From Acidobacteriota bacterium (GTDB lineage: Bacteria; Acidobacteriota; Aminicenantia; Aminicenantales; Saccharicenantaceae): 64,000 bases of DNA. The notes under the pieces are model-generated. The model did not search any database. It saw nothing but the letters and a program-made list of their open reading frames with translations, and was not told where the DNA came from. Both the position numbers and the translations under genes were made by a program. The stretch is taken from contig JAQURD010000005.1 in NCBI GenBank assembly GCA_028749115.1, forward strand, positions 17,826 through 81,825, read 5' to 3'. This document shows positions 17,969 to 56,474 of this stretch, one piece after another. Each line of letters starts with the position of its first letter. Position 1 is the stretch's first letter.

Positions 17969-18667
17969 ATGAATAGTAATAGTTTCAGCCAGACAAAAAA
18001 GATCGACTGGAAATCGATGACCGGCTTGCTCGTTATCTTCTTGCTTCCTTCCTTAGCAGGCGCCCAGGTTCTGATTAATTGTCTGGTGGCCAAGGTAGAT
18101 GAAGCTCCAGTTTCCCTTTATGATTTAAAAGTCGTTAGCCTGTTTGGCCTTGAGCCCCGCCTGGCTCAGACAGAGTTTCCTTTAGGAAAAGAAGATCTAA
18201 TCAATATATATATAGATGAGCTGCTGGTTCTCAATTTAACCAGGGAACAAATTAGCCTCAGCCGTGAAGAAATTGACCAGGAAATAGATCGAGTAAAAAT
18301 CAGGCTGGGTAGCGAGGCATTTGAAGAAAAATGTCAGGCTCTTGGCCTGGAGGTTGAAGATCTTTTCCCTTATATTGAGAATAAACTTCTTTTTGAAAAA
18401 ATAATTAATTCAAGATTTAGCCAGAAAGTTCATATTTCACTCCAGGAGCTGGAAGATTACTATCATCATACTTATGTGCCTGAGGCCATAGCTAAGGGGC
18501 AGGAAGTGCCGGAGATGATTAGTGTTATAACTGAAATTGAGAACAAATTACAGATGATAAAAGCCAGGGAAGAGCTAACTCAATGGATGAAGGAACTCAG
18601 GCAAAAGGCCAGGGTAATTATCAATCGCGATTGTCTGGAAAAAGTTGAAATTAAGGAGGAGAGATGA
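17969..18667 (+). CDS. Periplasmic chaperone, SurA N-terminal-domain-like (no PPIase domain)
   Basis: Signal peptide plus a helical chaperone-like domain with the pattern …APVSLYDLKVVSLFGLEPRL…. Position is directly downstream of the Omp85 gene. No parvulin domain is present. The assignment is an inference from context and composition. Confidence 0.4.
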   Translation: MNSNSFSQTKKIDWKSMTGLLVIFLLPSLAGAQVLINCLVAKVDEAPVSLYDLKVVSLFGLEPRLAQTEFPLGKEDLINIYIDELLVLNLTREQISLSREEIDQEIDRVKIRLGSEAFEEKCQALGLEVEDLFPYIENKLLFEKIINSRFSQKVHISLQELEDYYHHTYVPEAIAKGQEVPEMISVITEIENKLQMIKAREELTQWMKELRQKARVIINRDCLEKVEIKEER

Positions 18668-20278: not shown

Positions 20279-22969
20279 ATGTTAAAAAAGGATGACAGCC
20301 AGACTCCGATGATGGAGCAGTATCAAAGAATCAAAGCCAGCTACCGGGATTGCCTGTTGTTTTTCCGGCTCGGTGATTTTTATGAGATGTTTTATGAGGA
20401 TGCTTATACCGGTTCTCAAGTTCTTGGCATTGCTCTGACCTCCAGACAAAATGTTCCCATGTGCGGAGTCCCTTATCATGCCGTCAATTCATATTTAGCC
20501 AGGCTTCTCAAAGCTGGCTACCGGGTGGCCATCTGTGAGCAGGTAGAGGACCCGCGTCTGGCCAGAGGTGTGGTCAAAAGAGAAGTGCTCAAAGTGCTGA
20601 CACCTGGAACTGCCATTGAAATTGAAACTGACGAACGAGGAGAGAATTACGGCGTGCTGAGTCTTATCCAGGGAGAGGAGGGCTGGGGCCTGGCTTATGC
20701 TGATTTATTCACCGGCCAGATCAGTGCCCTTGAAGGTAAGCTGTCAGACAGGAAATTAATGCTGGATGAAATTTTCCGCTTTTCTCCAAAGGAGATAGTT
20801 TACCGGGAGGTTGACGAGGCTGGTCTGAAAGAAATCCTGGCTGGCAGCGACTTTTTGACGCTGGCCATGAGCTCTCTTGACGGTTGGACTTTTGAGTATT
20901 CACAAGCCATGTCATCTTTGCTTGAGCACTATCAGGTGGCTTCTCTGGAAGGATTTGGACTGAAGGATAAACCACTGGCTACCCGGGCAGCCGGTGGATT
21001 ACTCTACTACTTGAAAAAAAACAGGCATGAATCTATTAACTTCATCAAGCGGCTGACTTTCGTTCAAGTGAGTCAGACTATGGTACTGGACTCAACTGCT
21101 GTCAGGAACCTGGAGTTAATCAAAAATTTAAGGACTGGCCAGGTGAACGAATCGCTCCTGGGAGTTATTGACTATACTCTGACTTCACCCGGAGCCAGAT
21201 TGTTAAAAAACTGGTTATTACACCCCCTGCTCGATCAGCAGGAGATAGCAGGCCGGCAAGAGGCGGTGGAAGAAGCAGTTCAAAAACCAATTGTCAGGCA
21301 GGAAATAAGAAATCAGCTAAAAAAGATACTGGATATAGAAAGGCTGATCACCAGGATTTCAGTGGGAGCAGCCAATCCACGGGATCTGGTGGCTTTAAAA
21401 AAATCTCTCCAGCCACTGCCTGACATTGAAATCCAGTTGAAAAAATTTTCTGCCATTTATTTCCTTGAGATGCAGGCCAGGTGGGATAAGGCTGAAGATC
21501 TGGTCTCTCTTCTGGACCGGGCAATTCTGGATGAGCCGGCTTTTTTACTGCAGGAAGGTGGTATCATCAGGGATGGTTACGACTCTGAACTTGATAGCCT
21601 GAGGGCAATAAGCCACTCAGGCAAGAGCTTTATCACTCAAATAGAAAAAAAGGAAAGGGAGAGAACAGGTATTGCCTCGCTTAAAGTCCGGTATAATAAA
21701 GTTTTCGGTTATTATTTAGAGATAACCAAAGCCAATCTGTCAGCCGTCCCGGGCGATTATGAGCGGAAACAAACCCTGGTCAATAGCGAAAGATTTATTA
21801 CTCCTGAATTGAAAGAATATGAAGAGCGGGTTCTCCGGGCTGAAGCCAGAATCAATGAATTAGAATATGAGCTTTTTCTGAAGATTAGAGAGGAAATTGG
21901 ACGGGAAGCAGCCAGATTGCAGCAAATTGGGCAGAGTTTAGCCCAGCTCGATGTTATCCTGAGTCTGGCTGAACTGGCCCATGAAAGGAATTACCGGCGG
22001 CCAGAGGTGGACAGCAGCCAGGTTATTTCTATTACGGCTGGCCGTCACCCGGTCATTGAGGTAATTCAAAAGGAGCCTTTTATCCCCAATGATAGTTATC
22101 TTGATGGGGACGATCATCAGGTTCTAATCATTACCGGCCCCAATATGGGCGGCAAATCGACCTATCTAAGGCAGGTTGCTCTGATCTGTATACTGGCTCA
22201 GATTGGCTCTTTTGTTCCAGCGGAGGCAGCCAGAATCGGGCTGGTGGACAGGATATTTACCCGGGTCGGGGCGACTGATTATCTGACTGCCGGGCAATCG
22301 ACTTTCATGGTTGAAATGGTAGAAACAGCTAACATTTTAAACAGTGCTACTGGCCGCAGCCTGCTGCTGCTCGATGAGGTCGGGCGGGGAACAAGTACTT
22401 TTGACGGCTTGAGCCTGGCCTGGGCCATTGCCGAATATCTGCATCAGATGGAAAATATCAGGCCAAAAACCTTATTTGCCACTCATTATCACGAGTTAAC
22501 TGAGCTGGCTTCGACTTTCCCCCGGATAAAAAATTATCATGTGGCGGTGAAAGAATCACAGGGGAACGTCATTTTTCTCAGAAAGATTTGCCCCGGGCCT
22601 TCTGACCGTAGTTATGGACTGCAGGTGGCCAGACTGGCCGGCCTGCCGCCTGGTGTTATCAGGCGGGCCAGGGAAATTCTCTATAACCTGGAAAAACTGG
22701 AAATTGATGAACAGGGAAAACCGCGGCTGGCCTATCATCAAAATAATAACCAGCAGCCTGATCAACTCTGGTTGTTTGGTGATGACCGGGAATTGTCTTC
22801 TCTGAGAGACATGAAACAGAAATTGCTGGAGCTTGACCCCGACCACCTGACGCCAATTCAGGCTCTTGAATTACTGCATGACTTGAAGGAAGAACTGATC
22901 AAATCAAATCTATCTCATGAATCATCAGATTCATCATCAAAGTCCAGATCTTCTTCAAAATCATCATAA
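20279..22969 (+). CDS. mutS: DNA mismatch repair protein MutS (with an unusual Ser-rich C-terminal extension)
   Basis: Mismatch-binding N-terminus (GDFYEMF), Walker A GPNMGGKSTYLRQ, and STFMVEM…DEVGRGTST motifs. The last roughly 22 aa (SHESSDSSSKSRSSSKSS) extend beyond the conserved C-terminus and overlap a convergent gene. Confidence 0.93.
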   Translation: MLKKDDSQTPMMEQYQRIKASYRDCLLFFRLGDFYEMFYEDAYTGSQVLGIALTSRQNVPMCGVPYHAVNSYLARLLKAGYRVAICEQVEDPRLARGVVKREVLKVLTPGTAIEIETDERGENYGVLSLIQGEEGWGLAYADLFTGQISALEGKLSDRKLMLDEIFRFSPKEIVYREVDEAGLKEILAGSDFLTLAMSSLDGWTFEYSQAMSSLLEHYQVASLEGFGLKDKPLATRAAGGLLYYLKKNRHESINFIKRLTFVQVSQTMVLDSTAVRNLELIKNLRTGQVNESLLGVIDYTLTSPGARLLKNWLLHPLLDQQEIAGRQEAVEEAVQKPIVRQEIRNQLKKILDIERLITRISVGAANPRDLVALKKSLQPLPDIEIQLKKFSAIYFLEMQARWDKAEDLVSLLDRAILDEPAFLLQEGGIIRDGYDSELDSLRAISHSGKSFITQIEKKERERTGIASLKVRYNKVFGYYLEITKANLSAVPGDYERKQTLVNSERFITPELKEYEERVLRAEARINELEYELFLKIREEIGREAARLQQIGQSLAQLDVILSLAELAHERNYRRPEVDSSQVISITAGRHPVIEVIQKEPFIPNDSYLDGDDHQVLIITGPNMGGKSTYLRQVALICILAQIGSFVPAEAARIGLVDRIFTRVGATDYLTAGQSTFMVEMVETANILNSATGRSLLLLDEVGRGTSTFDGLSLAWAIAEYLHQMENIRPKTLFATHYHELTELASTFPRIKNYHVAVKESQGNVIFLRKICPGPSDRSYGLQVARLAGLPPGVIRRAREILYNLEKLEIDEQGKPRLAYHQNNNQQPDQLWLFGDDRELSSLRDMKQKLLELDPDHLTPIQALELLHDLKEELIKSNLSHESSDSSSKSRSSSKSS

Positions 22970-23229
22970 TCTTCATCATCATTCAGCCAGGCCTCATCCT
23001 GGCCATTTCTTCTTTGTTCGATGGCCTCTGCCAGCTCATCTTCATCGGCATAACGCCTTAGATAATTGGCGCCGGCAGCACTGTATCCCAGCTCCAGATA
23101 GTCTTCATCCAGAACACAGAAAACATACATTTCTTGATCAGAATGAAGATCGCCAATCGTCTCCACCATCTCGGCTGCCTTTTTTAAGGCATCAAGTGTT
23201 GTCCAACTTGATATTTCTATTTCTTCCAT
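22915..23229 (-). CDS. Small hyper-acidic hypothetical protein (104 aa)
   Basis: The ATG at 23229 is preceded by GGAG at optimal spacing. The N-terminal roughly 60 aa have ordinary globular composition, followed by a DDEDYDDFEEDLDFDDESDDS tail. The tail coding region is antisense to the mutS 3' extension. No family recognised. Confidence 0.45.
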   Translation of the reverse strand: MEEIEISSWTTLDALKKAAEMVETIGDLHSDQEMYVFCVLDEDYLELGYSAAGANYLRRYADEDELAEAIEQRRNGQDEAWLNDDEDYDDFEEDLDFDDESDDS

Positions 23230-23468
23230 GCCATTCTCCACCAGAAGAAAATATTTATTTTTTATATCTTGTCAAGGGGGCTGAAGGAAAAATTTATCCT
23301 GGTCTGTCAGACAAAGGTGAACCGGGGCGGGGGGTATTTACCATTCCAAAGAATAAGGGTAAAATTTATAAAAGAAAACTAGTGATTTAAACCAGAGGTT
23401 ATAAATAGACCAGGCTTTTTGACAGTCAGAAGCAAATGACCTAACTTTAGTAAAAAAGGAGATTAATT

Positions 23469-27429: not shown

Positions 27430-27502
27430 TGGCCAGGGACGGAATTGAACCGCCGACGCAGGGATTTTCAGTCCCTCGCTCTACCGCCTGAGCTACCTGG
27501 CC
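27430..27502 (-). tRNA. tRNA-Phe (anticodon GAA)
   Basis: Reverse complement GGCCAGGTAGCTCAGGCGGTAGAGCGAGGGACTGAAAATCCCTGCGTCGGCGGTTCAATTCCGTCCCTGGCCA folds as a cloverleaf: a 7-bp acceptor stem, GCTC/GAGC D-stem, anticodon loop CUGAAAA and a GGCGG/CCGUC T-stem. CCA is not encoded. Confidence 0.85.
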
Positions 27503-34654: not shown

Positions 34655-35233
34655 TCATGGTGTTGGTTCGGGCTCTGGATCAGGAAAATCGCTGAAGGTG
34701 ACGTCAATAAAGCCAAATTTAGTGACGTTGTGGTTGACCTGATCATGGCCATAAAAATCTATCCGCGCTTTGCAGCGAATGTCCTGGGGGAAGTTTCCAA
34801 CCAGAGCTGCTAAGGGAGGCTCGATCTTGGCTGAGCCCTGTACTATCGGCAGGTAAACAGTTATGGTTGAGCCCACAGGCAGGAGAATTTCAAGGCTACC
34901 CTCAAAATTACTGGGCACCTCTGTTGAGCTGCCCGTCGGGGTATAAGTGACCTTATATCCGGTTAGTGTGATGTCATAATAGGGTGAAGTTCCATCCGGG
35001 TCGGGATTGAGTGTGTTTGCTCTAAGATTGGCCTTGATAGTATCGGGAAGGTTATTGCTAACATCAGAAAAAGCAGTATTTCCATCCTTGCCATCGAGAT
35101 CTTTTCCCAAAATGCTTACAATTTCTATCCAGCTGGCTGAATTAGAATCATTTTCCAGGGGATTACAAGAAAACAAAAGGAAGCTTAAGAGCAGAAGGCT
35201 TATTATTTTAAAAACTAAGGAAATTTTGTTCAT
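34655..35233 (-). CDS. Hypothetical lipoprotein (last gene of the pil operon)
   Basis: Lipobox (LLFSC), a Pro/Asp/Glu-rich C-terminus and 192 aa. It follows pilQ after a 19-nt gap. Confidence 0.5.
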   Translation of the reverse strand: MNKISLVFKIISLLLLSFLLFSCNPLENDSNSASWIEIVSILGKDLDGKDGNTAFSDVSNNLPDTIKANLRANTLNPDPDGTSPYYDITLTGYKVTYTPTGSSTEVPSNFEGSLEILLPVGSTITVYLPIVQGSAKIEPPLAALVGNFPQDIRCKARIDFYGHDQVNHNVTKFGFIDVTFSDFPDPEPEPTP

Positions 35234-35252: not shown

Positions 35253-37568
35253 TTATTTCATAATTCTGGGAGTTATGAAGATGAGCAACTCCCTGTTCTG
35301 CCTTGTTCTGGCAAAAGACCTGAAGAGGGTCCCGAGAATCGGAATATTATTCAGGTAGGGGGTTTTATCTCTGGTAATGGAATCTTCAGTTCTATAAATG
35401 CCACCGATGACGGTTGTGCCGCCATCAGGTACCATAACAGTCGTTTTGGCACTCTGGGTGGTAATGGGTGGGATACCATTAACCAGGTTAGCAAAATCAG
35501 CTGCATTGTTCTGGATTTCAATGTTCATAATAATGGTGCCTTCGGCTGTAATCTGTGGCGTGGCTCTCAGCTCAAGAGCCGCATTGACATACCTGGTGGT
35601 GACGGTGAAATTAGCTACTGTCTGAACAGGAATCTGGCGGCCCTGAATTATTTCGGCTGCTTGATTATTTTGAGTGGTGACTTTTGGTGAGGAAATAATC
35701 CGGCCATTGCCCGAGGTCTCCAGCCCGGACAGAGCCACATCGAGTCTGAAAGTGTCAAGAACATTGGCGAAAGAAAAGCCAACGGCGGTATTAAAGGCCG
35801 GGGCCGGCAAATTGACGGCATAGCCGCCCAGGGGGCCGCCGATGCCTTTAGTCACTATGCCCTGAGGAATCATAGACCCATCGGCCAGGATTTTATTTGG
35901 GAAAGAAAGGGAAGTCTGATTCCCATAGAAGGGATCAACGATGCCTTTAAAGCCCCATTGAATCCCGAGATTTTTTATAAAAGTGGAAGTGGCCTCGACA
36001 ATTCTGGCCTCTATTGACACCTGAGGCGTAGGAGTATCAAGGACGCCAATTAATTTTTCCAGCAACTCCATCCGGTCCCTGACTTCAGAAATAATCATGG
36101 TGTTGGTTCTTTCATCAATGACAATCTCACCATTTCTGGAAAGCCTGCTCTTCAACAAGCTCTGGACATCTTTGGCTTTAGAATAAGATAGAGTGATTGT
36201 TTTGACCTGAATAGGTCCGGCCAGCTCTTTACTCTCCTGGATTCTTCTTACATCTTCGTCTTCCCTGGCCAGAACCTCAACGGGAGCAATTCTTAAGACA
36301 TTTCCTTCTATTGATTTGCCTAGTTTATTTTGTTTCAGGACAATGTCCAGGGCCTGATCCCACGGAACAGCCTGCAAATTGCAGGAAACTGTGCCTTTCA
36401 CCTCCGGATCAAAAATAACATTTAAGCCGGCCAGATCAGCTAAAAAGAGGATAACATCCCTGATGTCGGCATCTTTAAATTTAAGACTGATGACTTCACC
36501 GGTATATTTTTCTTCCTTTGACTGAATAATTTTGGGCTTAAATTTTTCCTGTTGAGGTTGTGCCTGGCTTTCAACAGGTTCCCTCTTTATCTTTTTTGGC
36601 TCTGGCTCTGATTCAATTTTGGCTTCTGGCTCAGCTTGAATCGTGGCTGGTTCGGAAGCTGGAGGGGCTTCACTTTTTATCTCCTTAGGTGCGTCCGGCA
36701 CAGCCAGGGCATTAGCCATCTGGGCATTAACTGGCGCAGGTGAAGGGTTTTGCACAGCGGTCGCCTCGTTTCTGGCCACTATGGCTTCCTGGGGAGCGTA
36801 AAAAGTTATGTTCAGGCCTTCACTAGAATTATCCAGGGCATACCAGCCTATTTCTTTCAGGTCAAAAACCAGCCTGGTTATCGGATAGGGGTCAGATTGC
36901 TTAAACTGTCCAACCCTAACCTTATCCACGTTGGCCTGACCTATCTGATATGATTGGCCCCCCCGCGGATACTGAGTATTAAGCAGGTCAATAACCAGAC
37001 GGTCAGGATTATTAAGGGCAAAAACCTGCAGGGGAGGTTCTCCGCTCAGCGAAATATTGAAATTGACCTTACCGGGATTCTTTTTTACTTTTAAATCACT
37101 GAAATAAACCTGGCTTTCCCGCTTAAGCCAGGGATTGATAGCCGGATCAATTGGATAATCAGCGGTTTTGAGAAATTCGTTCAGCTCAAGATACAATCTC
37201 CCCTGTTCCAGACCGAGACGATAAGGGACTTTTTCTTTAAGTGAAAGCAAAATCTTGAGATTCTCGCCAGCCGGTTCCAGCCGGATATTTGTTATCAACC
37301 GACCTTGTATTTCCTGTCTGGCAGGAATTTCTGACGGCTGGACATTGCTCAACTCCACCGCCAGCACCGGGGGAGTTGTGGAAATATAAGTTGCTTGCCG
37401 GACACTAACCGGCTTATCAGTCATCATCATGACCCTGGTTGATAAAGCCCCGGGGATGACTTCTATTTTGCTAAGAGTCGTGGCTGCACCTGCTGCGTGG
37501 AGGACCAGGCCAGGAACCATAATAAGATTTATTATGGCCAGCATCAGCCAAAAAATTTTCCTTTTCAT
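35253..37568 (-). CDS. pilQ: Type IV pilus secretin PilQ
   Basis: N-terminal AMIN-like region, a Pro/Glu-rich linker, N0/N1 domains and a C-terminal secretin domain (…NRELLIFITPRI…). The ATG at 37568 has an AGGAG ribosome-binding site and sits 1 nt after the pilP stop. Confidence 0.85.
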   Translation of the reverse strand: MKRKIFWLMLAIINLIMVPGLVLHAAGAATTLSKIEVIPGALSTRVMMMTDKPVSVRQATYISTTPPVLAVELSNVQPSEIPARQEIQGRLITNIRLEPAGENLKILLSLKEKVPYRLGLEQGRLYLELNEFLKTADYPIDPAINPWLKRESQVYFSDLKVKKNPGKVNFNISLSGEPPLQVFALNNPDRLVIDLLNTQYPRGGQSYQIGQANVDKVRVGQFKQSDPYPITRLVFDLKEIGWYALDNSSEGLNITFYAPQEAIVARNEATAVQNPSPAPVNAQMANALAVPDAPKEIKSEAPPASEPATIQAEPEAKIESEPEPKKIKREPVESQAQPQQEKFKPKIIQSKEEKYTGEVISLKFKDADIRDVILFLADLAGLNVIFDPEVKGTVSCNLQAVPWDQALDIVLKQNKLGKSIEGNVLRIAPVEVLAREDEDVRRIQESKELAGPIQVKTITLSYSKAKDVQSLLKSRLSRNGEIVIDERTNTMIISEVRDRMELLEKLIGVLDTPTPQVSIEARIVEATSTFIKNLGIQWGFKGIVDPFYGNQTSLSFPNKILADGSMIPQGIVTKGIGGPLGGYAVNLPAPAFNTAVGFSFANVLDTFRLDVALSGLETSGNGRIISSPKVTTQNNQAAEIIQGRQIPVQTVANFTVTTRYVNAALELRATPQITAEGTIIMNIEIQNNAADFANLVNGIPPITTQSAKTTVMVPDGGTTVIGGIYRTEDSITRDKTPYLNNIPILGTLFRSFARTRQNRELLIFITPRIMK

Positions 37569-37569
37569 G

Positions 37570-38046
37570 TTAACGCTCCTCCGGATTGATTTCTTTAACC
37601 ACATTTATAGGTCTCATCAGGGGAAAACCCCTTTCGTGAGTCTTCCTGAAAATCACCTGAGAGTGATTAATATCAAAAATATAGCCATCGGAGACTTTAT
37701 CCCCGATTTTTAAAAAATAGGGCATTTGTTGAGGCCCGCTGATAATAGCTACAAAACCCCTTTGAGTTTTGACAATGCCGACCAGAGTGGCATTGGCGAT
37801 GCTCAACTGTCCGCCTTCGGTCTGACCGCGGCTGCCTCCTTTGCCTCCACCAAGCAGATCCTTGAATGGATCCCGGCGGCCGCCTGGATCATAATAAGCT
37901 CGTGGCGGAAGATTGCTGAGATCAGGTGCCGTCATGACTGTGGCCTGCTGATCAGTTTTTTGGAGCTCCCGACCCAGGTTGTTGCTAAAAAAGCCCAATG
38001 CCCCAACCAGGGTCATAATCATGATAAGCAAGAGCGTCTTTTTCAT
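37570..38046 (-). CDS. pilP: Type IV pilus assembly protein PilP (lipoprotein)
   Basis: Size, position between pilO and pilQ, and a signal/anchor sequence (MKKTLLLIMIMTLVGALGFFS). The ATG at 38046 has a GAGGT ribosome-binding site, 2 nt after the pilO stop. The family call comes mainly from synteny. Confidence 0.6.
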   Translation of the reverse strand: MKKTLLLIMIMTLVGALGFFSNNLGRELQKTDQQATVMTAPDLSNLPPRAYYDPGGRRDPFKDLLGGGKGGSRGQTEGGQLSIANATLVGIVKTQRGFVAIISGPQQMPYFLKIGDKVSDGYIFDINHSQVIFRKTHERGFPLMRPINVVKEINPEER

Positions 38047-38050
38047 TTTC

Positions 38051-38632
38051 TTACCTCTGAGCTTTGCCAGTGCCGGTTGTTTTGGCCGGCGGCGTTTGCT
38101 CTTCAATGAAGTAATAGGTGGTAGCTACAAATTTGGAGTTTATGGTTAGCACGTCTGTCTGGTTGTTGAGAGCCGAGATAGAAAAATTATCGACGTTAAA
38201 TAACCTGGAAAACTTGCTCAACTTGTCAAAGAAAATTCCCAGATTATGATAGGTGCCTGAAATTTCTATATTAATCGGCCATTCAGCGTAAAAATCTTTC
38301 TTGACTTCGCCTTTCGGCTGGAATTTAAGGACATTTAAATGTGAATCATAAGCTAATTGCTGAATCCGCCGGAGAATATCGGCAATTTCCTTTTTCTGAG
38401 GGATAATCTGCTCGAGATCTTTCAGAGTGGCGCTGAGGATGACCAGCTCAGCCTCTATTTTATCCAGTTCTTTCTTTTTTTCTTTTAAAACCTCAACTTC
38501 CTTTTCCAGTTTCTGCCGCGACTCTTGCAGGCTCTTCAACTCGGCATTTCTGGGTTTAAAAAAGAAAAAGAAGACAAGAGCAAAAATGATAACAGCTACT
38601 ACTAGATGTCCATACCAGGGCCAGTTTCTCAT
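38051..38632 (-). CDS. pilO: Type IV pilus assembly protein PilO
   Basis: Single N-terminal transmembrane segment, a coiled-coil, then …WPINIEISGTYHNLGIFFDKLSKFSRL… matching the PilO core. Confidence 0.75.
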   Translation of the reverse strand: MRNWPWYGHLVVAVIIFALVFFFFFKPRNAELKSLQESRQKLEKEVEVLKEKKKELDKIEAELVILSATLKDLEQIIPQKKEIADILRRIQQLAYDSHLNVLKFQPKGEVKKDFYAEWPINIEISGTYHNLGIFFDKLSKFSRLFNVDNFSISALNNQTDVLTINSKFVATTYYFIEEQTPPAKTTGTGKAQR

Positions 38633-38634
38633 TA

Positions 38635-39267
38635 TTATCTCCTTTTCCCTGTCTGAGCAGCAGTCTTAGGCTTTGGCTGCCCGGCTGGCAATAGCTGAGG
38701 CTTATTAACAGGGACAGTCATATTAAATTCCATGAAGACGGCTCCTCCCTGAGTTTTTTGAGTTGAATCGATCAGATTAACCTGACCAAAGGTTTCGCTC
38801 CGCTCAAGATTGGTAATAAAATCAGCGATGAGATTATTGGAGATAGCCTGGCCTTTTAGCTTTAGAGCCTGGCCATTGTAACTGGCTTCCTTTAACCAGA
38901 CATAATCAGGCAAGCGGCGGTTTATTTCATCCATTATTTTAACAGAAATATCCTGATTGCCTTTCAATTGCCGGATCAAGTTGATTTTAAGCTCAAGCTG
39001 AGCTTTCTGGTTTTTAACTTCATCCAGCTTGGCCACCACATATTGGAGCTGGCTTTTTTCTTGTTGGGCCTGATTGATGAGCTGCTTTTCCTTCTGCATT
39101 TGCCAGTTCTGGTAAAAATAATAGCCTGCCAGGCTGACCAGCAGGATCAGAAAAATGATGGTGCCCAGACTGGTCTTCTTTCTTTCCTTGGGTAATTTAG
39201 GTACACCTGCGGCTGCCGGTTCCCTGATTTCCTTGACTTCCGGTTTTAATAAATTAATCCTGATCAT
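38635..39267 (-). CDS. pilN: Type IV pilus assembly protein PilN
   Basis: MIRINLLKPE… N-terminus, one transmembrane segment, a coiled-coil and a periplasmic domain. Confidence 0.75.
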   Translation of the reverse strand: MIRINLLKPEVKEIREPAAAGVPKLPKERKKTSLGTIIFLILLVSLAGYYFYQNWQMQKEKQLINQAQQEKSQLQYVVAKLDEVKNQKAQLELKINLIRQLKGNQDISVKIMDEINRRLPDYVWLKEASYNGQALKLKGQAISNNLIADFITNLERSETFGQVNLIDSTQKTQGGAVFMEFNMTVPVNKPQLLPAGQPKPKTAAQTGKRR

Positions 39268-39270
39268 GGC

Positions 39271-40347
39271 TCATTTCTCTGCCTTTCTCGTTGAAAGTCC
39301 AACTGCCACCCCGAAGACGGGGGCCATTTCATTGAAATAGATAGAATCAAACTTTCTTTCATCATACTTGATGGCTCTAAAAGGGTTAAACAGCTCAGTA
39401 TTGATTCTGAATTTCATCTCAAAAGCATTAACCATGTTGGGAATTAAGGCTAGGCCGCCGCTGAGTAGAATCTGTTCAATTCGGCGGTCTCTTTTTTCTC
39501 CAGCCTCATAAAAAGAAAAAGTTTTTTCCATCTCATCCAGCAAATCTCTAATGTTCATGGTCAGGATGGCGGCAAACTGATCGGCATCAATATTCTTACC
39601 AGGGATGCCTTTTAAGGCTGCCTCTGCTTCTTCGAAAGTGACGTTTAATTCTTTTCTGATGTTTTCAGTAAAAAGATAACCGCCAAGCGACAGATCACGG
39701 AAAAGCTGGGGGAGGCCTCTTTCCACGATACCAACGTTAGTAATATTGGCTCCCATGTTTATAATAGCCACGGTCTTGTCTCTAAAGATTTCGGGATAAT
39801 TAGCCTCTAAAGCATTAGTTAAAGAAAAAATATCTACTTCAATCGAGGCCAGACTTTTCCTGGCCATGGAGATGGCATTACTATAATTGGCGATTTTATC
39901 CTTTTTGGCTGCCACCAGTAGAATATCGACATTGGCTTCAGGTGCCTGGGGGGATTTCAGGATGGCATAGTCAACATTGGTTTCTTCGTATGGATAGGGG
40001 ATATTATGCTTGGCTTCCCAGATGATGGACTCAGCCAGCTCCTGTGAATCCATATTGGGCAACGAGATTTTTTTGATGATGACTGAATTGCCTGAAATCG
40101 AGATAGCCACATCCTTATTGGTTATTTTGGCATTATCAAAGAGCAGTTTTATTGTTTCGCTGACTGCGGTCGAGTCGATGATGGTGCCTTCAACTATGGC
40201 ATCATGGGGGAGGGGTTCATAACCGATCTTCTGGACTTCATACTGAACGTTTTCGCCTTTCTCTTTGATTTTTAACTCAACTGCCTTTACCGAGTAGGAC
40301 CCGATATCGAGGCCTACTAAACTCTTGTCTTTGGCCAAACCAAACAT
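39271..40347 (-). CDS. pilM: Type IV pilus assembly protein PilM (actin-like ATPase fold)
   Basis: N-terminal LVGLDIGSYSVKAVEL (actin-like fold phosphate-1 motif) and a 358-aa length. The gene is followed by pilNOPQ. Confidence 0.85.
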   Translation of the reverse strand: MFGLAKDKSLVGLDIGSYSVKAVELKIKEKGENVQYEVQKIGYEPLPHDAIVEGTIIDSTAVSETIKLLFDNAKITNKDVAISISGNSVIIKKISLPNMDSQELAESIIWEAKHNIPYPYEETNVDYAILKSPQAPEANVDILLVAAKKDKIANYSNAISMARKSLASIEVDIFSLTNALEANYPEIFRDKTVAIINMGANITNVGIVERGLPQLFRDLSLGGYLFTENIRKELNVTFEEAEAALKGIPGKNIDADQFAAILTMNIRDLLDEMEKTFSFYEAGEKRDRRIEQILLSGGLALIPNMVNAFEMKFRINTELFNPFRAIKYDERKFDSIYFNEMAPVFGVAVGLSTRKAEK

Positions 40348-44767: not shown

Positions 44768-46576
44768 ATGAAGCTAATTAACCTGTTTAAAAAAAAGGGC
44801 TGGCCCCTGGCTATCTGTCTGGTTATTCTCAGCGGACCTACCCGGGCGGAAGAGGGCAGACTGGCTACGTTTCTCTCTCCGGCTAATTTAAAGCCGGGAA
44901 TGACCTTCAGGCTTGTCATTTTTTCTGAAAACGGAAGTAAGCTGCTGGAAAACGGCCTGAATGTTATTTGCCATGGTCCCGGGAATAAAGCAAGCCGCCT
45001 GATGATGAAAAAAAAGAATGGCGGTCCGCCCTTCTGGCAATGGTGGTCGGGTGAGGTCAAGGACAGCGGGTGGCACCGGCTGGAAATAAGAAACGGCCGC
45101 CAGGTCGTTAAGACCTTTGACTTTGAAGTGCCGGCCGGGCTATCTCAGGTGGTAGCTTCACCATATTACTGGCCAGCAGGAAACAACTGGAACAGGGAAA
45201 AGGAGAATCTCTATTCAGCCTGGATTGAAGCTCTTTTTGGTCAGAGTGATGAGGATGATTCCTGGCCAAACTTAAGTGTGGTTCTCAAAGATCCGGAAAA
45301 AAATTTTCTTTATAATCACCTTGGTCTGGGGGAAGATGAAAGTGACGTCCAGCTTCAACCGGATTGTGCTGATAATCCTTTTGTGTTGCGTGGCTATTTT
45401 GCCTGGAAGTTAAGGTTGCCCTTCGGTTTTCATGCCTGTTCCCGTGGTTCCCTGTCTGAACCGCCTGCCTGTCAGAGATGGTTTATTAATGAAATGCCAG
45501 GCTCAAGGGGAAATGAAGTCAATAAATTTCACCGGCTGATGCGGCTGGTCATGGATACCGTTCATTCGGGAACAGCCAGGACAGCTTTAAAGGCAGAAGA
45601 GTCAGATTATTATCCTCTCCCACTCGAGAGACATAAACTGCCGCCGGGAACAGTTTTTGCTGACCCATACGGCCACACCCTGGTTATTGTTCACTGGCGC
45701 CCTCAAACCGATGATCAGCCTGGAGAGCTTCTGGCCGTAGATGCTCAACCCGATAATACTATTGGCATTAAGAGATTCTGGCCGGGCAATTTCCTTTTTG
45801 CTACCGAGAACGTTGTCGGGCAACCAGGTTTTAAGGCCTTCAGGCCAATCATCATTAAAAATAATCAGCTCAAATTGATGACTAATGGGGAAATAGAGCT
45901 CAGCCTGGATTATGGGCAAATCTCCTTTGAGCAGTTAAACCTCCAGCCTGAGGATTTTTATAATAGAATGGAACAATTGATAAATCCCCGGCCTCTTGCC
46001 CCTGAAGCTGTCCTGTCAGAGCTTTTCCGGGCTTTACAAGAACAACTTCAGGTTAGGGTGGCTTCGGTCGGGATGGCAGAAAAATTTAAGAAGGAACATC
46101 CTGATTATATTATCCCTATGCCTTCAGGGGCAGCTATCTTTCAGTCAAGTGGCCCCTGGGAAGATTTATCGACACCCAACCGTGACCTCCGTGTTCTTAT
46201 CGCCATTGATACTATCAAAAATTTCCCTGATAAGGTTCTCAAACATCCCGGGCTGTATAAAATAAAAAAATCAGGAGCACCGGAAAAAATTAGGACCGGG
46301 CTAATCCAGCTATCAGACAAACTGGCCAATGAAATGAAAATTACCTATCGCCGGTCTGATGACCGCCCCTGGAGTCTATCGCTGAAAGAGGTAATGGCCA
46401 GGCAGGAGGCATTTGAGATGGGCTACAACCCCAATGATTGTGTGGAATACCGCTGGGGAGCACCTGCCGGTTCAGAGGAATATTCTACTTGCCGCCGGTA
46501 CGCTCCGCCAGCTCAAAGGGAAAAAATGACTGCTGTCCGCATCTGGTTCAAAAAGCGCCTGCATCCTCCTACCTGA
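44768..46576 (+). CDS. Large secreted hypothetical protein (602 aa), candidate Cys/His hydrolase fold
   Basis: Signal peptide (…LVILSGPTRAEEG). No family recognised. Conserved-looking FHACSRGS and PGTVFADPYGHTLVIVHW segments resemble the Cys and His blocks of NlpC/P60- or transglutaminase-like papain-fold enzymes. This is inference only. Confidence 0.55.
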   Translation: MKLINLFKKKGWPLAICLVILSGPTRAEEGRLATFLSPANLKPGMTFRLVIFSENGSKLLENGLNVICHGPGNKASRLMMKKKNGGPPFWQWWSGEVKDSGWHRLEIRNGRQVVKTFDFEVPAGLSQVVASPYYWPAGNNWNREKENLYSAWIEALFGQSDEDDSWPNLSVVLKDPEKNFLYNHLGLGEDESDVQLQPDCADNPFVLRGYFAWKLRLPFGFHACSRGSLSEPPACQRWFINEMPGSRGNEVNKFHRLMRLVMDTVHSGTARTALKAEESDYYPLPLERHKLPPGTVFADPYGHTLVIVHWRPQTDDQPGELLAVDAQPDNTIGIKRFWPGNFLFATENVVGQPGFKAFRPIIIKNNQLKLMTNGEIELSLDYGQISFEQLNLQPEDFYNRMEQLINPRPLAPEAVLSELFRALQEQLQVRVASVGMAEKFKKEHPDYIIPMPSGAAIFQSSGPWEDLSTPNRDLRVLIAIDTIKNFPDKVLKHPGLYKIKKSGAPEKIRTGLIQLSDKLANEMKITYRRSDDRPWSLSLKEVMARQEAFEMGYNPNDCVEYRWGAPAGSEEYSTCRRYAPPAQREKMTAVRIWFKKRLHPPT

Positions 46577-48618: not shown

Positions 48619-49483
48619 AGTGAAAAACCGGACTAAGATTTTAGTGTTTTTGGCAGGCATCTTATTGTTGCTTTACTCCGGGCTGGCTGCCCAGACAGCC
48701 GGAGAGAAGATAAAGCACGATGAGCAGTTATTGCAGGAAGCCAAACTGTTGATTTTTGATAAAAAGTGGAGTCAGGCTGAACAGAAACTGAGCGAGTTTT
48801 TAAGCCGCTATCCTAAAAGTGCTCTTTATTCCCAGGCTCTTTTCTATAAGGGAAAGTGCCTGACTGAGCAGAGGGGCAAAGAACTGACGGCCTGGCAGAC
48901 TTTTGAGGAATTTTTAAAGAGACCGGATAAGCCTGAGGGCCTGGTAGAGGAAGCCCAGATTGCCAGTCTTGACCTGGCTTTTAACCTTTACCAGAGTGGG
49001 CAGACAAGTTTTGGCCAGATACTGACTGGCCGGCTAAATGATCCAAACCCGGTAATCCGTTATTATGCAGCTTTTAAGTTGAGCTATCTTCAGGATAAGA
49101 AGCTGGCCAGGGAGGCCGTTCCGGTTTTGAAAAAGTTGATGGAAGAAGAAAAAGATCCGGAACTGGTGGACCGGGCAAAAATTGCTCTGCTAAGAATTTC
49201 TCCAGAGTTCTTTAAAGAGATAAAAGACCGCTCTGATTCTGGGGGGCATCGTCTGGTCAAAATCAGGATATTCGAAAAAGGCAAAAAAACTCCCAATGTT
49301 TCAGTCAATTTTCCTCTGGCTCTGGCTGACCTGGCTCTCCAGGCTATGCCGGAGAGGGATAAAAACCGGATCAAGCAGCAAGGATATGATCTTGACCGGA
49401 TTCTGGAAGATCTGGCCAAATCACACGAAAAGCTGATCAGAATTGAGGAAGATGGCAATTTAATTGAAATCTGGATCGAATAA
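48608..49483 (+). CDS. Secreted helical-repeat (TPR/HEAT-like) protein with a C-terminal domain paralogous to the next gene
   Basis: Signal peptide, helical repeat region, and a C-terminal roughly 80 aa (HRLVKIRIFEKG…LIRIEEDGNLIEIWIE) that align with the downstream protein. Confidence 0.5.
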   Translation: MRPKVKNRTKILVFLAGILLLLYSGLAAQTAGEKIKHDEQLLQEAKLLIFDKKWSQAEQKLSEFLSRYPKSALYSQALFYKGKCLTEQRGKELTAWQTFEEFLKRPDKPEGLVEEAQIASLDLAFNLYQSGQTSFGQILTGRLNDPNPVIRYYAAFKLSYLQDKKLAREAVPVLKKLMEEEKDPELVDRAKIALLRISPEFFKEIKDRSDSGGHRLVKIRIFEKGKKTPNVSVNFPLALADLALQAMPERDKNRIKQQGYDLDRILEDLAKSHEKLIRIEEDGNLIEIWIE

Positions 49484-49514
49484 ATCTATGGATCATAATA
49501 TAAGGAGGATTAAG

Positions 49515-49901
49515 ATGAAAAAGATAGCGATGATAGCTGTTCTGACAGTTATGGCTCTGAGCTTAACAGCCGGGCCGTCTTTCACCCTGGATAAGGATGA
49601 TTATAGGGTGATAAAAAAGGCCGTTGGAGAAAATCCTAAAAGCCAGCCTGCGGCTGAAGTAAAATGGCTTAGAGTCTTAATAGTTGAGAATGCCTCGGGT
49701 AAAGAAAAAGTAAAGGTGACTATGCCCATTTCACTGGTTGAGATTTTTGCCCGCTGCGCTGAATACCAGAAAGACGAAGTGAAAGGCAAGGGAGGTTCTT
49801 TGAATTTTAGCGAGTTACTGGAGCAACTGAAAAAAGCCGGTCCAATGGCCATCGTAGAAATCAATGAGGAAGATGAGACAATCAAAGTCTGGCTCGAATA
49901 A
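49515..49901 (+). CDS. Small secreted protein, paralog of the C-terminal domain of the upstream gene
   Basis: Signal peptide after the ATG at 49515 (AAGGAGG ribosome-binding site). The C-terminal part (KWLRVLIVENASGKEKVKV…AIVEINEEDETIKVWLE) aligns with the previous protein's C-terminus. Confidence 0.5.
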   Translation: MKKIAMIAVLTVMALSLTAGPSFTLDKDDYRVIKKAVGENPKSQPAAEVKWLRVLIVENASGKEKVKVTMPISLVEIFARCAEYQKDEVKGKGGSLNFSELLEQLKKAGPMAIVEINEEDETIKVWLE

Positions 49902-53399: not shown

Positions 53400-53873
53400 T
53401 TATTCTTTTTCAACTGCCAGAGCCAGATCGACAGCTTCCCTTGCTGAGCTGGCTGGTATTACTCCTTCAATTTTCCACGTATTTATGCCTATAACTTTTT
53501 TATTATAGATCCGGGCGAAGGCTATTTCACTCAGGGTGCCATATTCTCCGTCTATGGCAATAACGCTCCCGGCGTTCAGGACAACCAGGGAATTCCGGCT
53601 AAAACCGATGCCTGTGGCCAGACTGAGATCAATAAAAGGATTAGCTTCTTCCAGCCTCGTCCCGGGCAAAATACCTATGGTCAGACCGCCAGCTTCTTTT
53701 GCTCCCCGGGCGGCTGCTTCCATAATGCCTGTTAGCCCTCCACAGATTAGAATGGCGCCCTGTTCAGCCAGTAATCGTCCTGTTTCGTAAGCGATTTTCA
53801 ATGACTCATTATCCGGTTTATGACCTCCGATGACTGCCACCCGCTGGCTTTCTCTTAAGCTTTTCTTAATCAA
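53400..53873 (-). CDS. TIGR00725 / LOG-family (SLOG-type Rossmann) protein
   Basis: …VIGGHKPDNESLKIAYETGRLLAEQGAILICGG…TGIMEAAARGA… and the PGxxR…E pattern typical of the LOG/TIGR00725 fold; 157 aa. Confidence 0.6.
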   Translation of the reverse strand: MIKKSLRESQRVAVIGGHKPDNESLKIAYETGRLLAEQGAILICGGLTGIMEAAARGAKEAGGLTIGILPGTRLEEANPFIDLSLATGIGFSRNSLVVLNAGSVIAIDGEYGTLSEIAFARIYNKKVIGINTWKIEGVIPASSAREAVDLALAVEKE

Positions 53874-54002
53874 GGTGAGTATCCTTTCGCCACCTGTATT
53901 ATCAGCTAAATAGAAACCTTTAAGTCAGGCCTGAAATCAAAAATACCATAGCCATTGTTTCATTTCAAAGTTTAACTATTTTTCAAACAAATCTAAGGAA
54001 AA

Positions 54003-54032
54003 TTGACTAAAGATAAGTAAATATGATATCAA
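54003..54032 (+). promoter_or_regulatory. Candidate sigma-70 promoter upstream of the mglA-like gene (TTGACT-N18-TATCAA)
   Basis: Hexamers read from the sequence; weak -10. Not validated. Confidence 0.3.
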
Positions 54033-54050
54033 TATTTCCAGGGTGAAAAA

Positions 54051-54908
54051 ATGGCCTATGTCAATTATGTGACCAAAAACATGGCCATCAAGATTGTTTA
54101 TTATGGCCCGGGTTTAAGCGGCAAAACAACCAATCTCAGATATATTTATTTTAAACTGGAACCAGCCTACCGGGGTGAGCTGGTTTGCCTTGAAACCGCG
54201 GCGGAAAGAACATTCTTCTTTGATCTCCTGCCGATCAAAGCTGGTCTGATTAAGGACTTTAAGGTGCATTTTCAGCTTTTGACTGTCCCCGGACAGGTTT
54301 TTTATGAAGCATCAAGAAAAAGTGTACTCAAGGGAGCAGATGGCCTGGTTTTTGTAGCTGATTCTCAACTGCCGCTTCTTGAGGCCGATATGGAAAGCTT
54401 TGACGGCCTGAGAAAAAACTGCCTTGAGCAGGGGATAGACCTTAACCGGGTTCCTCTTGTTTTTCAATATAATAAAAGGGATTTACCTAATCTGATTCCA
54501 GTTGAGACACTCAACCGCTTGTTGAATTCACGCCATTGCCCTTATGTTGAAGCTGAAGCTATTAACGGGCGCGGGGTGCTGGAGACCCTTAAAGAAGTTG
54601 CCCGTCTGACTGTTCCTGTGGTCAAAGCCAGTATCTTCGATGAAAAACTGCCGGCGGCAGAAGAGTCCATGGAAACGGCACCGGGCACGGCTCAAATGCT
54701 GAGTACTTCTGAGCTCAAGCCAGCAGCCGGAGAATCCGGCTCTAAAAAAAAGACTGGCAAAAAATCAGAGGAAGCTCAGATTGAATTTGTCAAACCTGGC
54801 GATGAGTCGCCCTTTCCAACCACAAAGATTAAAGTTCAATCAATTGAAGATATTGAGCAGGAAATTGCTCGCCTGTCGAAAGAGTTTGGCCTGACCAAGA
54901 AAAAATAA
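54051..54908 (+). CDS. mglA: MglA-family Ras-like small GTPase with a C-terminal low-complexity extension of about 90 aa
   Basis: KIVYYGPGLSGKTTNL P-loop, …TVPGQVFY… switch II and …FQYNKRDLPN… G4 motifs match MglA. The protein is 285 aa, against about 195 aa for canonical MglA. Confidence 0.75.
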   Translation: MAYVNYVTKNMAIKIVYYGPGLSGKTTNLRYIYFKLEPAYRGELVCLETAAERTFFFDLLPIKAGLIKDFKVHFQLLTVPGQVFYEASRKSVLKGADGLVFVADSQLPLLEADMESFDGLRKNCLEQGIDLNRVPLVFQYNKRDLPNLIPVETLNRLLNSRHCPYVEAEAINGRGVLETLKEVARLTVPVVKASIFDEKLPAAEESMETAPGTAQMLSTSELKPAAGESGSKKKTGKKSEEAQIEFVKPGDESPFPTTKIKVQSIEDIEQEIARLSKEFGLTKKK

Positions 54909-54959
54909 AAGGCAGTCTGAGAATTATTGTTCGAGTCAGGCGTCCCTTTTCCAGGGACA

Positions 54960-56474
54960 ATGCTGGTAAGAATTCCAAGTGCTTCTTTACATGGAATAGA
55001 AGCTTATCTGGTAGAAGTTGAGGTTGATATCTCACCCGGGCTGCCAGCCTTTATTATTGTTGGCCTGCCTGATGCTGCTGTCCGGGAAAGCAAAGAAAGA
55101 GTCAGAGCGGCTCTGCGCAATTGCGGTTTTGATTTTCCGGCGAAAAAAATAATCATTAATCTAGCTCCGGCCAGCAGGAAAAAGGAAGGTTCTTCCTTTG
55201 ACCTGCCAGTTGCTCTCGGGTTGCTGGCCTTTTTGGGAGTGGTTAAGGCGGAGAATCTGAGCCAGTTTCTTTTTGTAGGTGAACTGACTCTGGAGGGCAG
55301 TCTTAAGTCGGTCAGAGGCGGACTGCCTTTTTCCCTTCTGGCCGCCGAAAAAAAATTGTCGGGTTTAGTCTTGCCTGAGAAGAACGAGAGGGAGGCCTCC
55401 CTGGTGAGGAATTTGCCCGTCTATGGATTAGAACATCTGCTGGAAGTAATAAAGCTTCTTAATGGCTCGGATGAAATAAAACCTGCCAGTTATTCACTCT
55501 CTGAATTAATGGGAGAAGTCAGGCAGGAAGTGGATTTTTCTGAAGTCAGGGGGCAGCAACAGGCAAAAAGGTCTCTGGAGGTAGCGGCTGCCGGCGGACA
55601 TAATATATTGCTGATCGGACCTCCTGGCTCAGGGAAAACTATGCTGGCCCGGCGGTTGCCAACTATTCTTCCGGATATGGCCTTTGAAGAAATAATTGAA
55701 GTCACCCAGATATACAGTGCAGCTGGAATTTTAGGTGGCAGGGCAGCTATCAGTCAGAGGCCATTTCGGTCGCCACACCACACGATTACCAATACTGGAC
55801 TGGTAGGTGGTGGTAATTTCCCCAGGCCTGGAGAAGTCAGTCTGGCTCATTACGGGGTTTTGTTTATGGATGAATTTCCTGAATTTGGACGCCAGGCTCT
55901 GGAGAGCCTGCGTCAGCCTCTGGAAGATGGGCAGGTAACAATTTCACGGGTGGCCTCCAGTCTGACTTTTCCCTGTTCTTTTATGCTGGTAGCGGCCATG
56001 AATCCCTGTGCTGATGTTTTCTTCGCCTCAGGCCTGGAAGTTAACTGCACCGAGCTTGAAAGAAGAAAATATTATTCAAGATTATCAAAGCCATTGCTGG
56101 ACAGGATTGATATTCAGATAGAGGTGCCGGCGGTCCAATATCAGGATCTAACCGGACGGCCCCCAGGTGAATCTTCAGCCGAAATAAAAAAAAGGGTATC
56201 TGCTGCCAGGAAAATTCAATGGCAGAGATTCAAAGGGCGAAAGATATTTGCCAACTCTCAGATGAACTCTAAGGATTTGCGCCAGTTCTGCCTGGTGGAA
56301 GCTGAAGGCCAGAAACTGTTGGAGGCGGCCATGAAGAGATTCCAGTTCAGTGCCAGGGCCTATGACCGCATTCTAAAAGTGGCCAGGACGATTTCTGATC
56401 TGGCCGGAGAAGAGAAACTGTCAGCTAGGACTATAGGTGAGGCTGTCCAGTATCGCCTTCTGGACGTTTTTTGA
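54960..56474 (+). CDS. YifB/ComM-family Mg-chelatase-like AAA+ ATPase
   Basis: N-terminal Lon-like domain (…EAYLVEVEVDISPGLPAFIIVGLPDAAVRESKERV…), AAA+ Walker A GPPGSGKTMLA and C-terminal Mg-chelatase domain. The ATG at 54960 is chosen over the in-frame TTG at 54927. Confidence 0.85.
   Translation: MLVRIPSASLHGIEAYLVEVEVDISPGLPAFIIVGLPDAAVRESKERVRAALRNCGFDFPAKKIIINLAPASRKKEGSSFDLPVALGLLAFLGVVKAENLSQFLFVGELTLEGSLKSVRGGLPFSLLAAEKKLSGLVLPEKNEREASLVRNLPVYGLEHLLEVIKLLNGSDEIKPASYSLSELMGEVRQEVDFSEVRGQQQAKRSLEVAAAGGHNILLIGPPGSGKTMLARRLPTILPDMAFEEIIEVTQIYSAAGILGGRAAISQRPFRSPHHTITNTGLVGGGNFPRPGEVSLAHYGVLFMDEFPEFGRQALESLRQPLEDGQVTISRVASSLTFPCSFMLVAAMNPCADVFFASGLEVNCTELERRKYYSRLSKPLLDRIDIQIEVPAVQYQDLTGRPPGESSAEIKKRVSAARKIQWQRFKGRKIFANSQMNSKDLRQFCLVEAEGQKLLEAAMKRFQFSARAYDRILKVARTISDLAGEEKLSARTIGEAVQYRLLDVF

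Follow-up and report, generated by a model that had tools for sequence, protein, structure and literature searches.

A tailed MglA GTPase of Aminicenantales with a conserved C-terminal module of possible regulatory function

The tailed mglA gene and its G domain

We analysed a stretch of 64,000 nucleotides (nt) from contig JAQURD010000005.1 of an uncultured Acidobacteriota bacterium of the Saccharicenantaceae (the window, used below for the whole stretch), and within it a gene for a small GTPase of the MglA type. MglA is a model of Ras-like polarity control in bacteria. To our knowledge, all known regulation of MglA acts via separate proteins, namely MglB, RomR/RomX, RomY, and MglC. The mglA open reading frame (ORF; 54051-54908, plus strand, as are all parts of the gene given below) runs from an ATG start to a TAA stop and encodes 285 amino acids (aa). 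It comprises an MglA G domain of the Group 1 type (residues 1-196, 54051..54638), a hypervariable, low-complexity and probably disordered linker (residues 197-243, 54639..54779), and a conserved C-terminal module of 42 aa (residues 244-285, 54780..54905). A 151-kb contig of an Acidobacteriota metagenome-assembled genome at NCBI encodes an identical protein.

The initial annotation of this DNA had recognized G-domain motifs of the MglA type. Both motifs that it quoted (KIVYYGPGLSGKTTNL and TVPGQVFY) are present, and the Group 1 residues are intact. Direct reading of the sequence identified the G1 P-loop GPGLSGKT (residues 19-26, 54105..54128), the intrinsic arginine finger R53 beside the G2 threonine T54 (54207..54212), and the G3 motif TVPGQ with T78 and the catalytic Q82 (residues 78-82, 54282..54296). 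The G4 motif NKRD, which confers guanine specificity (residues 141-144, 54471..54482), is invariant in the family alignments. The P-loop is invariant in the family as well, its residue G21 being kept in 119 of 120 members; R53 is likewise kept in 119 of 120, and T78 and Q82 in all 120.

Residues 1-192 align without gaps to the solved MglA structures of Myxococcus xanthus (E = 3.7e-66) and Thermus thermophilus (E = 5.6e-59). Over these 192 residues the G domain is 52-57% identical to Group 1 MglA (M. xanthus MXAN_1925 and the T. thermophilus protein; PDB 5YMX, 6IZW, 6H5B, and 3T12), with which it also shares the MglA-specific insert and the basic residues of helix alpha5. The predicted fold superposes on solved MglA with a template modelling (TM) score of 0.93, and the beta2/switch region is almost identical to that of canonical MglA. 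All the features that Wuichet & Sogaard-Andersen (2015) use for Group 1 were found, that is, the G1 P-loop, the arginine finger, TVPGQ, [NT]KxD, and similarity to solved MglA; an arginine finger of the R53 type is the defining feature of the group (PMC4316618). By all catalytic criteria legible in the sequence, the tailed protein is the Aminicenantales version of the Group 1 MglA polarity GTPase. With the catalytic machinery intact (P-loop G21, R53, Q82, and NKRD), it is still expected to switch between its GTP and GDP states, and it probably still responds to a GTPase-activating protein (GAP).

The tailed MglA departs from the rest of the family in its size, in a private C-terminal module carried on a disordered tether, and in the lack of coupling to mglB, being linked to yifB instead. 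The reference survey gives 150-240 aa for small GTPases; the protein has 285 aa, the tailed family ranges from 259 to 296 aa, and no Pfam model describes the tail. The canonical MglA matches in our third homolog search were 195-197 aa long, apart from one of 213 aa and one of 307 aa, an apparent artefact. The latter (P0245), which was the top match of the canonical-MglA profile search, is encoded on a 1.6-kb contig, contains an internal duplication of residues ~35-125, and ends in an Arg/Ser-rich C-terminus that looks out of frame. Most likely it reflects an error of assembly or a frameshift and does not represent a second kind of long MglA. Searches of the tailed MglA against Pfam and NCBIfam gave Ras and small_GTP matches below threshold only, which fits the vague names under which it is found in public databases: it is called a 'GTPase domain-containing protein' and, by the Joint Genome Institute (JGI), 'signal recognition particle receptor subunit beta', which is wrong.

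A variable linker and a constrained terminal module

Beyond residue 192 the protein continues for 93 residues (E 15%, K 15%, S 11%, A 10%, P 6%), in agreement with the initial annotation, which had counted about 90 extra C-terminal residues rich in Ser, Lys, Glu, and Pro. The tail had also been described as long and disordered. This description suits the linker, at residues ~197-243, which is variable and was modelled with low confidence; it does not suit residues 244-285, which form a conserved module with a predicted strand and helix. Across the family, the linker is 12-15% identical, 21-55 aa long, and rich in E, K, A, P, and R, whereas identity amounts to 74-80% in the G domain and 52-60% in the module, where many positions are at least 90% conserved.

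We calculated the ratio of nonsynonymous to synonymous substitution rates (dN/dS) with the Nei-Gojobori method and took medians over 29 orthologous genes. The G domain had a median dN/dS of 0.024 and the module one of 0.042, as against 0.42 for the linker. Constraint on the final 42 residues is thus nearly as strong as that on the GTPase domain. This pattern rules out a wrong stop or a frameshift, and the chance that the tail results from an error of annotation or assembly (for example an overlooked stop, a shift of frame, or reading on into non-coding DNA) is practically nil: the frame and the position of the stop are shared among genomes from 24 GTDB species and more than 200 homolog clusters from independent assemblies, and the insertions and deletions that change the length of the linker comprise whole codons only.

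The tail that the initial annotation had singled out is thus kept in orthologs. The more than 200 clusters, collected in two homolog searches, cover the whole protein (259-296 aa), and all those with a taxon name belong to Candidatus Aminicenantes, Aminicenantales, Aminicenantaceae, or Saccharicenans. The 24 GTDB species with a full-length tailed gene were found in a scan of a genome collection.

The module has a constant layout. It begins with [IV]-[ED]-F-[VI] (here IEFV) and P-x4-P-[FLI], continues with T-K-[IV]-K-[VIM]-x-S and an amphipathic helix, and closes with a basic end. The motif T258-K-I-K-V262 (54822..54836), in which basic and hydrophobic residues alternate, was assigned as a beta-strand by DSSP in an AlphaFold2 (AF2) model; positions 259 and 261 are basic in 99-100% of the members, and positions 260 and 262 are hydrophobic in 98-100%. 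The helix extends from I265 to F279 (IEDIEQEIARLSKEF; 54843..54887) and corresponds to the short amphipathic segment with which the tail had been said to end. It is modelled as a helix by AF2, and its hydrophobic stripe (268/272/275/279) is conserved in 99-100%. Acidic residues occupy positions 267, 269, 271, and 273 in at least 97% of the members; at 274 and 277 the residues are basic. The hydrophobic moment of the helix is 0.63, and its net charge is -3.

An amphipathic helix followed by a basic end could be a membrane-targeting sequence of the MinD/FtsA type, which would anchor MglA at the inner membrane. The hydrophobic moment, 0.50-0.63 as compared to 0.57 for the membrane-targeting sequence of FtsA, and the K-rich end of the protein would suit such a role. 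However, the polar face of the helix is acidic, with the four acidic positions kept throughout the family and a net charge of -3 as against +3/+4 for FtsA and MinD; an acidic helix is unfavourable on an anionic bacterial membrane, and the module as a whole is roughly neutral. Given the acidic character of the helix, we consider a membrane anchor very improbable.

A 44-position HMMER profile of the module was searched against 1.84 billion representative proteins and gave 31 matches. Nearly all the interpretable ones were the C-terminus of an MglA-like protein, preceded by alpha5 sequence. In one match (P0148) the N-terminus is unrelated, and this protein may be a chimera. Three others (P0134, P0141, and P0147) were dismissed as false positives, as they are translations of tandem DNA repeats (...PLRVDKIVIQSKKHLYAWTRL..., ...SLRPLRSLCVKIRSEKAIHTEIAKI...); they illustrate that ORFs derived from repeats can mimic the K/I/E-rich motif of the module. 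Against PDB and Pfam, the profile gave only chance coiled-coil-like matches (E >= 0.067). In the searches described, the module is found only in the MglA subfamily of Aminicenantales, to which it appears to be private. A literature search found no report of MglA in Aminicenantes or Saccharicenans, nor of a tailed MglA.

MglB and the possible docking of the module

The initial annotation had seen no roadblock ORF in the window, and our searches agree. We used as query the authentic MglB of M. xanthus, identical to PDB 6h5b_B; the search (phmmer --max) covered all 407 stop-to-stop ORFs of the window with a length of 50 aa or more, and its best match had an E value of 0.37. Robl_LC7 was absent from Pfam and NCBIfam scans of essentially all ORFs of the window, at E <= 10 for those that are unannotated. 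The right flank beyond the window runs into the dcw cluster, and no roadblock gene was found there. The same holds for 33 related loci, which span up to ~20 kb each: tblastn and precomputed Pfam context tables revealed no roadblock or MglB gene within ~10 kb of the mglA gene. In a coupled system mglB (PF03259) lies within four genes of mglA; neither the window nor any of the 33 loci has this arrangement. The same kind of context table served as a positive control at locus L033: for a canonical 195-aa mglA on a 1.29-Mb contig, it lists a 159-aa PF03259 gene located 3 nt upstream.

Orphan MglAs have been described before. In the survey of Wuichet (2015), 59 of 449 MglA-family genes are uncoupled, and there are two characterized orphans, M. 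xanthus SofG and Bdellovibrio bacteriovorus MglA, which both act on the polarity of type IV pili. Like the tailed mglA, their genes have no adjacent mglB. SofG (239 aa) is likewise longer than MglA and keeps the arginine finger; however, its G domain is divergent and extended at both the N- and the C-terminus, and the protein is insensitive to MglB and depends on bactofilin. Compared with SofG as described, the tailed protein has the G domain of a close MglA ortholog and no N-terminal extension. Its G domain is 55% identical to MglA, and together with the missing N-terminal extension this makes orthology to MglA likelier than descent from the SofG type. No segment like the module has been reported for SofG or Bdellovibrio MglA.

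The protein could be an ordinary MglA, with the gene for its GAP MglB at another place in the genome, possibly together with RomR/RomX or beside a second mglA. The missing neighbour would then be without functional meaning, and the tail a lineage-specific add-on with no relation to MglB. We give this explanation an even chance; it is compatible with those considered below and does not exclude them. It agrees with the essentially invariant G21, R53, and Q82, as MglB-less MglAs of the Bdellovibrio type often carry A/S21, and with the almost canonical beta2/switch region. Unlinked partners are common, since 328 orphan MglB genes are known in genomes, and the patterns used in our genome-collection scan were specific to tailed MglA and thus blind to a divergent second mglA. 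On the other hand, no Aminicenantes MglB turned up in the sequences retrieved, and the strong purifying selection on the module would be left unexplained. Furthermore, according to a survey cited in PMC3983030, nine of 70 MglA-bearing species lack MglB altogether; five of the nine carry A/S21, unlike the tailed MglA, while the other four keep G21, so that a G21 MglA in a genome without MglB has precedents there. The point about the missing partner may dissolve if whole genomes reveal MglB. If, in addition, the tail is a mere localization tag, it would be a modest lineage-specific decoration.

What the module might do is suggested by the complex of MglA with MglB. In 6IZW, the N-terminal beta-strand of MglB extends the MglA sheet at beta0, and the acidic C-terminal helix of MglB sits in a pocket formed by alpha5 (K181, K185), beta2, and the beta2-beta3 loop (L64, I67; PMC6785124). 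These contacts of strand and helix promote the flipped-beta2 state and nucleotide exchange in MglA. The counterparts of the pocket can be located in the tailed protein. Helix alpha5 (54576..54638) has basic residues, K181 and R185, at the two positions through which the pocket of M. xanthus MglA contacts the acidic C-terminal helix of MglB; in the tailed family position 181 is K or R in 97% and position 185 in 100%. The end of beta2 together with the beta2-beta3 loop (residues 59-67, LLPIKAGLI, 54225..54251) corresponds to another part of the pocket.

We infer the function of the tail from sequence comparison and a structure model, and tentatively read the module as a regulatory element on a tether, folded back to dock on the G domain of the same protein, a reading that we hold to be possible though short of probable. 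The TKIKV strand would add to an edge of the central sheet of the G domain, and the acidic helix that follows would pack in the basic and hydrophobic pocket of alpha5, beta2, and the beta2-beta3 loop. This would be the surface that takes up the N-terminal strand and the acidic C-terminal helix of MglB in M. xanthus, where occupancy of the pocket favours the flipped-beta2, GTP-like state and nucleotide exchange. The tail would provide an allosteric 'third switch' within the GTPase: it would be bound in one of the two nucleotide states and set free in the other, when it could bind partners or compete with them, and it would stand in for part of what MglB or RomR provide in trans.

The structure model is consistent with such docking. 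With a diverse alignment of 150 sequences, AF2 returned a predicted TM score (pTM) of 0.76; the predicted local distance difference test (pLDDT) was 85-95 for the G domain, below 50 for the linker, and ~70 for the module. In this model residues 258-262 form a 5-residue DSSP beta-strand (pLDDT ~69), followed by a helix at 265-278. DSSP assigns a strand only where it is paired with another; since the tail contains no second one, the model pairs residues 258-262 with the G domain. The G domain itself has 24 family-specific substitutions, including F59L and L64A, which both sit in the stretch of residues 59-67 (L64A being invariant), R73H, H75Q, and the C-terminal end of alpha5 (T187, V188, P189, and V191). 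Twelve of the 24 fall into beta0-beta1, the interswitch (including L64A of the pocket), and the end of alpha5.

The module also resembles the C-terminal region of MglB, in that both proteins have, at the extreme C-terminus, a short D/E-rich amphipathic helix preceded by a flexible segment. The consensus of the helix in the family, IEEELEKL, has an acidic and hydrophobic pattern like that of DDDIDNL in the MglB helix. An MglB C-terminus of the pocket-binding type has been defined (Baranwal 2019) as an extension of more than 15 residues with a predicted helix containing 2-4 Asp/Glu; the tail corresponds to this definition, which was written for MglB and not for MglA, its helix carrying D267, E269, and E271, with position 273 acidic in 97% of the family. 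The basic alpha5 residues 181 and 185 expected on the receiving side are present as K181 and R185. In an hhalign comparison of the module with M. xanthus MglB, the sole local match was the P-x4-PF segment, which precedes the C-terminal helix in MglB. It does so directly there, whereas the TKIKVxS strand intervenes in the tailed MglA. In contrast to MglB, the elements are part of MglA itself and would act in cis, and strand and helix adjoin each other instead of flanking a roadblock domain on either side.

Each of these clues (the basic residues 181/185, L64A and the other substitutions, the helix consensus, and P-x4-PF) is weak on its own, and several observations weigh against docking in cis. 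The retained G21, R53, and Q82 argue that a GAP still acts on the protein, so that the tail is probably no replacement for the roadblock domain of MglB. The pLDDT of the module, ~70, is only moderate, and the first AF2 run, with a shallow alignment of 119 close homologs, yielded the helix at 265-278 but neither strand nor docking; in that run the mean pLDDT was 60, the G domain was poor too, and the outcome was uninformative as regards docking. The enrichment of the substitutions is marginal (P = 0.015, or 0.055 when invariant columns are left out), and the canonical set with which the family was compared is biased towards Myxococcota. The hhalign match is not significant (E = 0.086, probability 0.7%), and the pattern matches, that of the helix among them, were noticed after the fact. 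Positions 181 and 185 are basic in canonical MglAs as well and thus not specific to the tailed family; they are explained equally well by an MglB or RomR encoded elsewhere. The C-terminal region of RomR showed no or weak binding to MglA (2024 preprint), which cautions against the assumption that any acidic helix binds the pocket. Covariation between tail and G domain is uninformative: mutual information with average product correction (MI/APC) gave phylogenetic noise, the effective number of sequences being 63 and the clade-defining columns 83, 119, and 127 dominating the signal.

About equally likely is a docking motif that works in trans. The linker would present the strand-plus-helix peptide to another protein, whereby the GTPase would be localized or an effector recruited, with no involvement of the back face of the G domain. 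Candidates for this partner are the neighbouring YifB/ComM ATPase, a second MglA molecule, a polar landmark, and a pilus ATPase or cytoskeletal element. A variable disordered linker with a short conserved end is typical of tethered interaction motifs. It is also what is seen in RomR, which has a variable linker and a conserved acidic helical end, and whose linker and Glu-rich C-terminal region are the determinants of pole targeting. The AF2 confidence of ~70 and the undocked module of the first model would be expected of a motif that folds upon binding its partner. As the module is absent from all other protein families, it would have to have co-evolved with something specific to the lineage. 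Against this explanation, the analysis turned up no partner, and the DSSP strand of the second AF2 model implies pairing with the G domain within the monomer.

One candidate partner is supplied by gene linkage. The yifB/comM-family gene of the window (54960..56474, plus strand), which encodes a Mg-chelatase-like AAA+ protein (TIGR00368, 3.5e-187), follows mglA, and a yifB/comM gene lies downstream of the tailed mglA in all of the 33 related loci. In 32 of these the two genes are directly adjacent, with a gap of ~50-180 nt, and the linkage holds even where every other neighbour differs (loci L005 and L032). Yet it may be plain synteny, and in locus L034 a gene for an 810-aa polytopic membrane protein is inserted between mglA and yifB.

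Small GTPases with a tethered helix are known from eukaryotes. Arf has an N-terminal amphipathic helix, which is governed by the nucleotide state, and an interswitch pocket. The tailed MglA is comparable in design to Arf with its N-terminal helix and to Ran with its C-terminal switch, as each combines a G domain with a tethered helix; the segments are not homologous. In Ran, the tethered helix packs on the G domain while the protein is inactive, and the tail is acidic (PMC9885160 and PMC8607414). The MglA family itself has been inferred to be lost from eukaryotes (Wuichet 2015). If the comparison is right, the position of the MglA tail would depend on the bound nucleotide, as in Ran and Arf.

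Taken to its full extent, docking of the module on its own G domain would make the tailed MglA a self-contained switch, with the strand and acidic helix of MglB, and possibly of RomR, built into MglA itself. Nucleotide exchange and the beta2 'screw' would be controlled in cis, exposure of the module would depend on the nucleotide, and the protein would be a prokaryotic counterpart to the 'third switch' of Ran and Arf, in a lineage that may lack MglB altogether. We consider this full version unlikely. If the module does dock on the allosteric back face, it would lend independent support to the recent idea of the pocket as a general control point of prokaryotic small GTPases, and bacteria would have reached the design of G domain plus tethered helix that Ran and Arf use. 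An MglA subfamily that spans an order, carries a strongly selected module, and in the loci analysed never lies beside mglB is a natural experiment on the rewiring of a switch.

Neighbouring genes

The flanking genes named in the initial annotation, a LOG-like gene on the opposite strand and yifB, were both confirmed. For yifB, the ATG at 54960 (MLVRIPSASLHG...) is the likelier start, since homologs and the TIGR00368 match begin there; a TTG at 54927 is the alternative given by a mechanical ORF list. A 5-bp inverted repeat, GTCCC-N7-GGGAC, is located just upstream of the ATG at 54960. No terminator-like site was found in the gap of 18-51 nt between mglA and yifB in the window (54909-54959), which makes co-transcription plausible; the two genes may belong to one operon and may be functionally linked.

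On the other side of mglA lies a divergent gene of the LOG superfamily (53400..53873, minus strand), which belongs to SLOG cluster4/TIGR00725 (PF18306, 1.8e-43; TIGR00725, 1.6e-38). The intergenic region between the two (53874..54050) is AT-rich and contains a TTGACT-type hexamer resembling a -35 element and, just before the ATG, the Shine-Dalgarno sequence AGGGTGA. The promoter scan of this region returned sites on the minus strand only; the putative plus-strand promoter comes from manual reading.

In relatives outside Saccharicenans, a block of four glycosyltransferase family 4 (GT4) genes is found upstream of the tailed mglA on the same strand, in most cases directly. In L001 (5435-9948), L004 (5374-9888), L034 (5442-9950), and L035 (5433-9932), the block separates the SLOG gene from mglA. 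In L032 (621-5138), extra genes separate the block from mglA, and the SLOG gene is out of view. The window has no such GT4 block; there, the SLOG gene and mglA lie next to each other in divergent orientation.

A pilMNOPQ operon had been placed about 14 kb from mglA by the initial annotation, which took it as a sign of the pilus machinery that MglA proteins often regulate. The operon is indeed present 13.7 kb away (35253-40347, minus strand; pilM, pilN, pilO, a weak pilP, and pilQ). Nothing ties it to mglA, however, and the two simply share the same housekeeping window. A pair of genes for TamB (1137 aa) and Omp85/TamA (909 aa) is located 36 kb from mglA (11817-17956, plus strand). MglA of Bdellovibrio binds a tetratricopeptide repeat (TPR) protein encoded with tamAB (PMC3983030); no TPR gene was seen beside the tamAB pair of the window.

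Five ORFs of the window had no Pfam or NCBIfam match at permissive thresholds: 44768-46576 (+), 22917-23390 (+), 49464-49901 (+), 34655-35233 (-), and 17969-18667 (+). One of them encodes 602 aa; the ORF at 22917-23390 shares sequence with the end of mutS and is possibly not a real gene. Between a fadL-like gene and a gene resembling that for aspartate-semialdehyde dehydrogenase lies a single tRNA gene (Rfam RF00005, 67 bits; 27430-27502, minus strand). An hslV-hslU pair (7757-9714, plus strand) encodes a proteasome-like subunit and an AAA_2 ATPase, with overlapping stop and start codons; it forms part of an ordinary housekeeping context, as do mutS, clpB, priA, icd, tsaB, rimI, truA, ftsQAZ, and murC in the same window.

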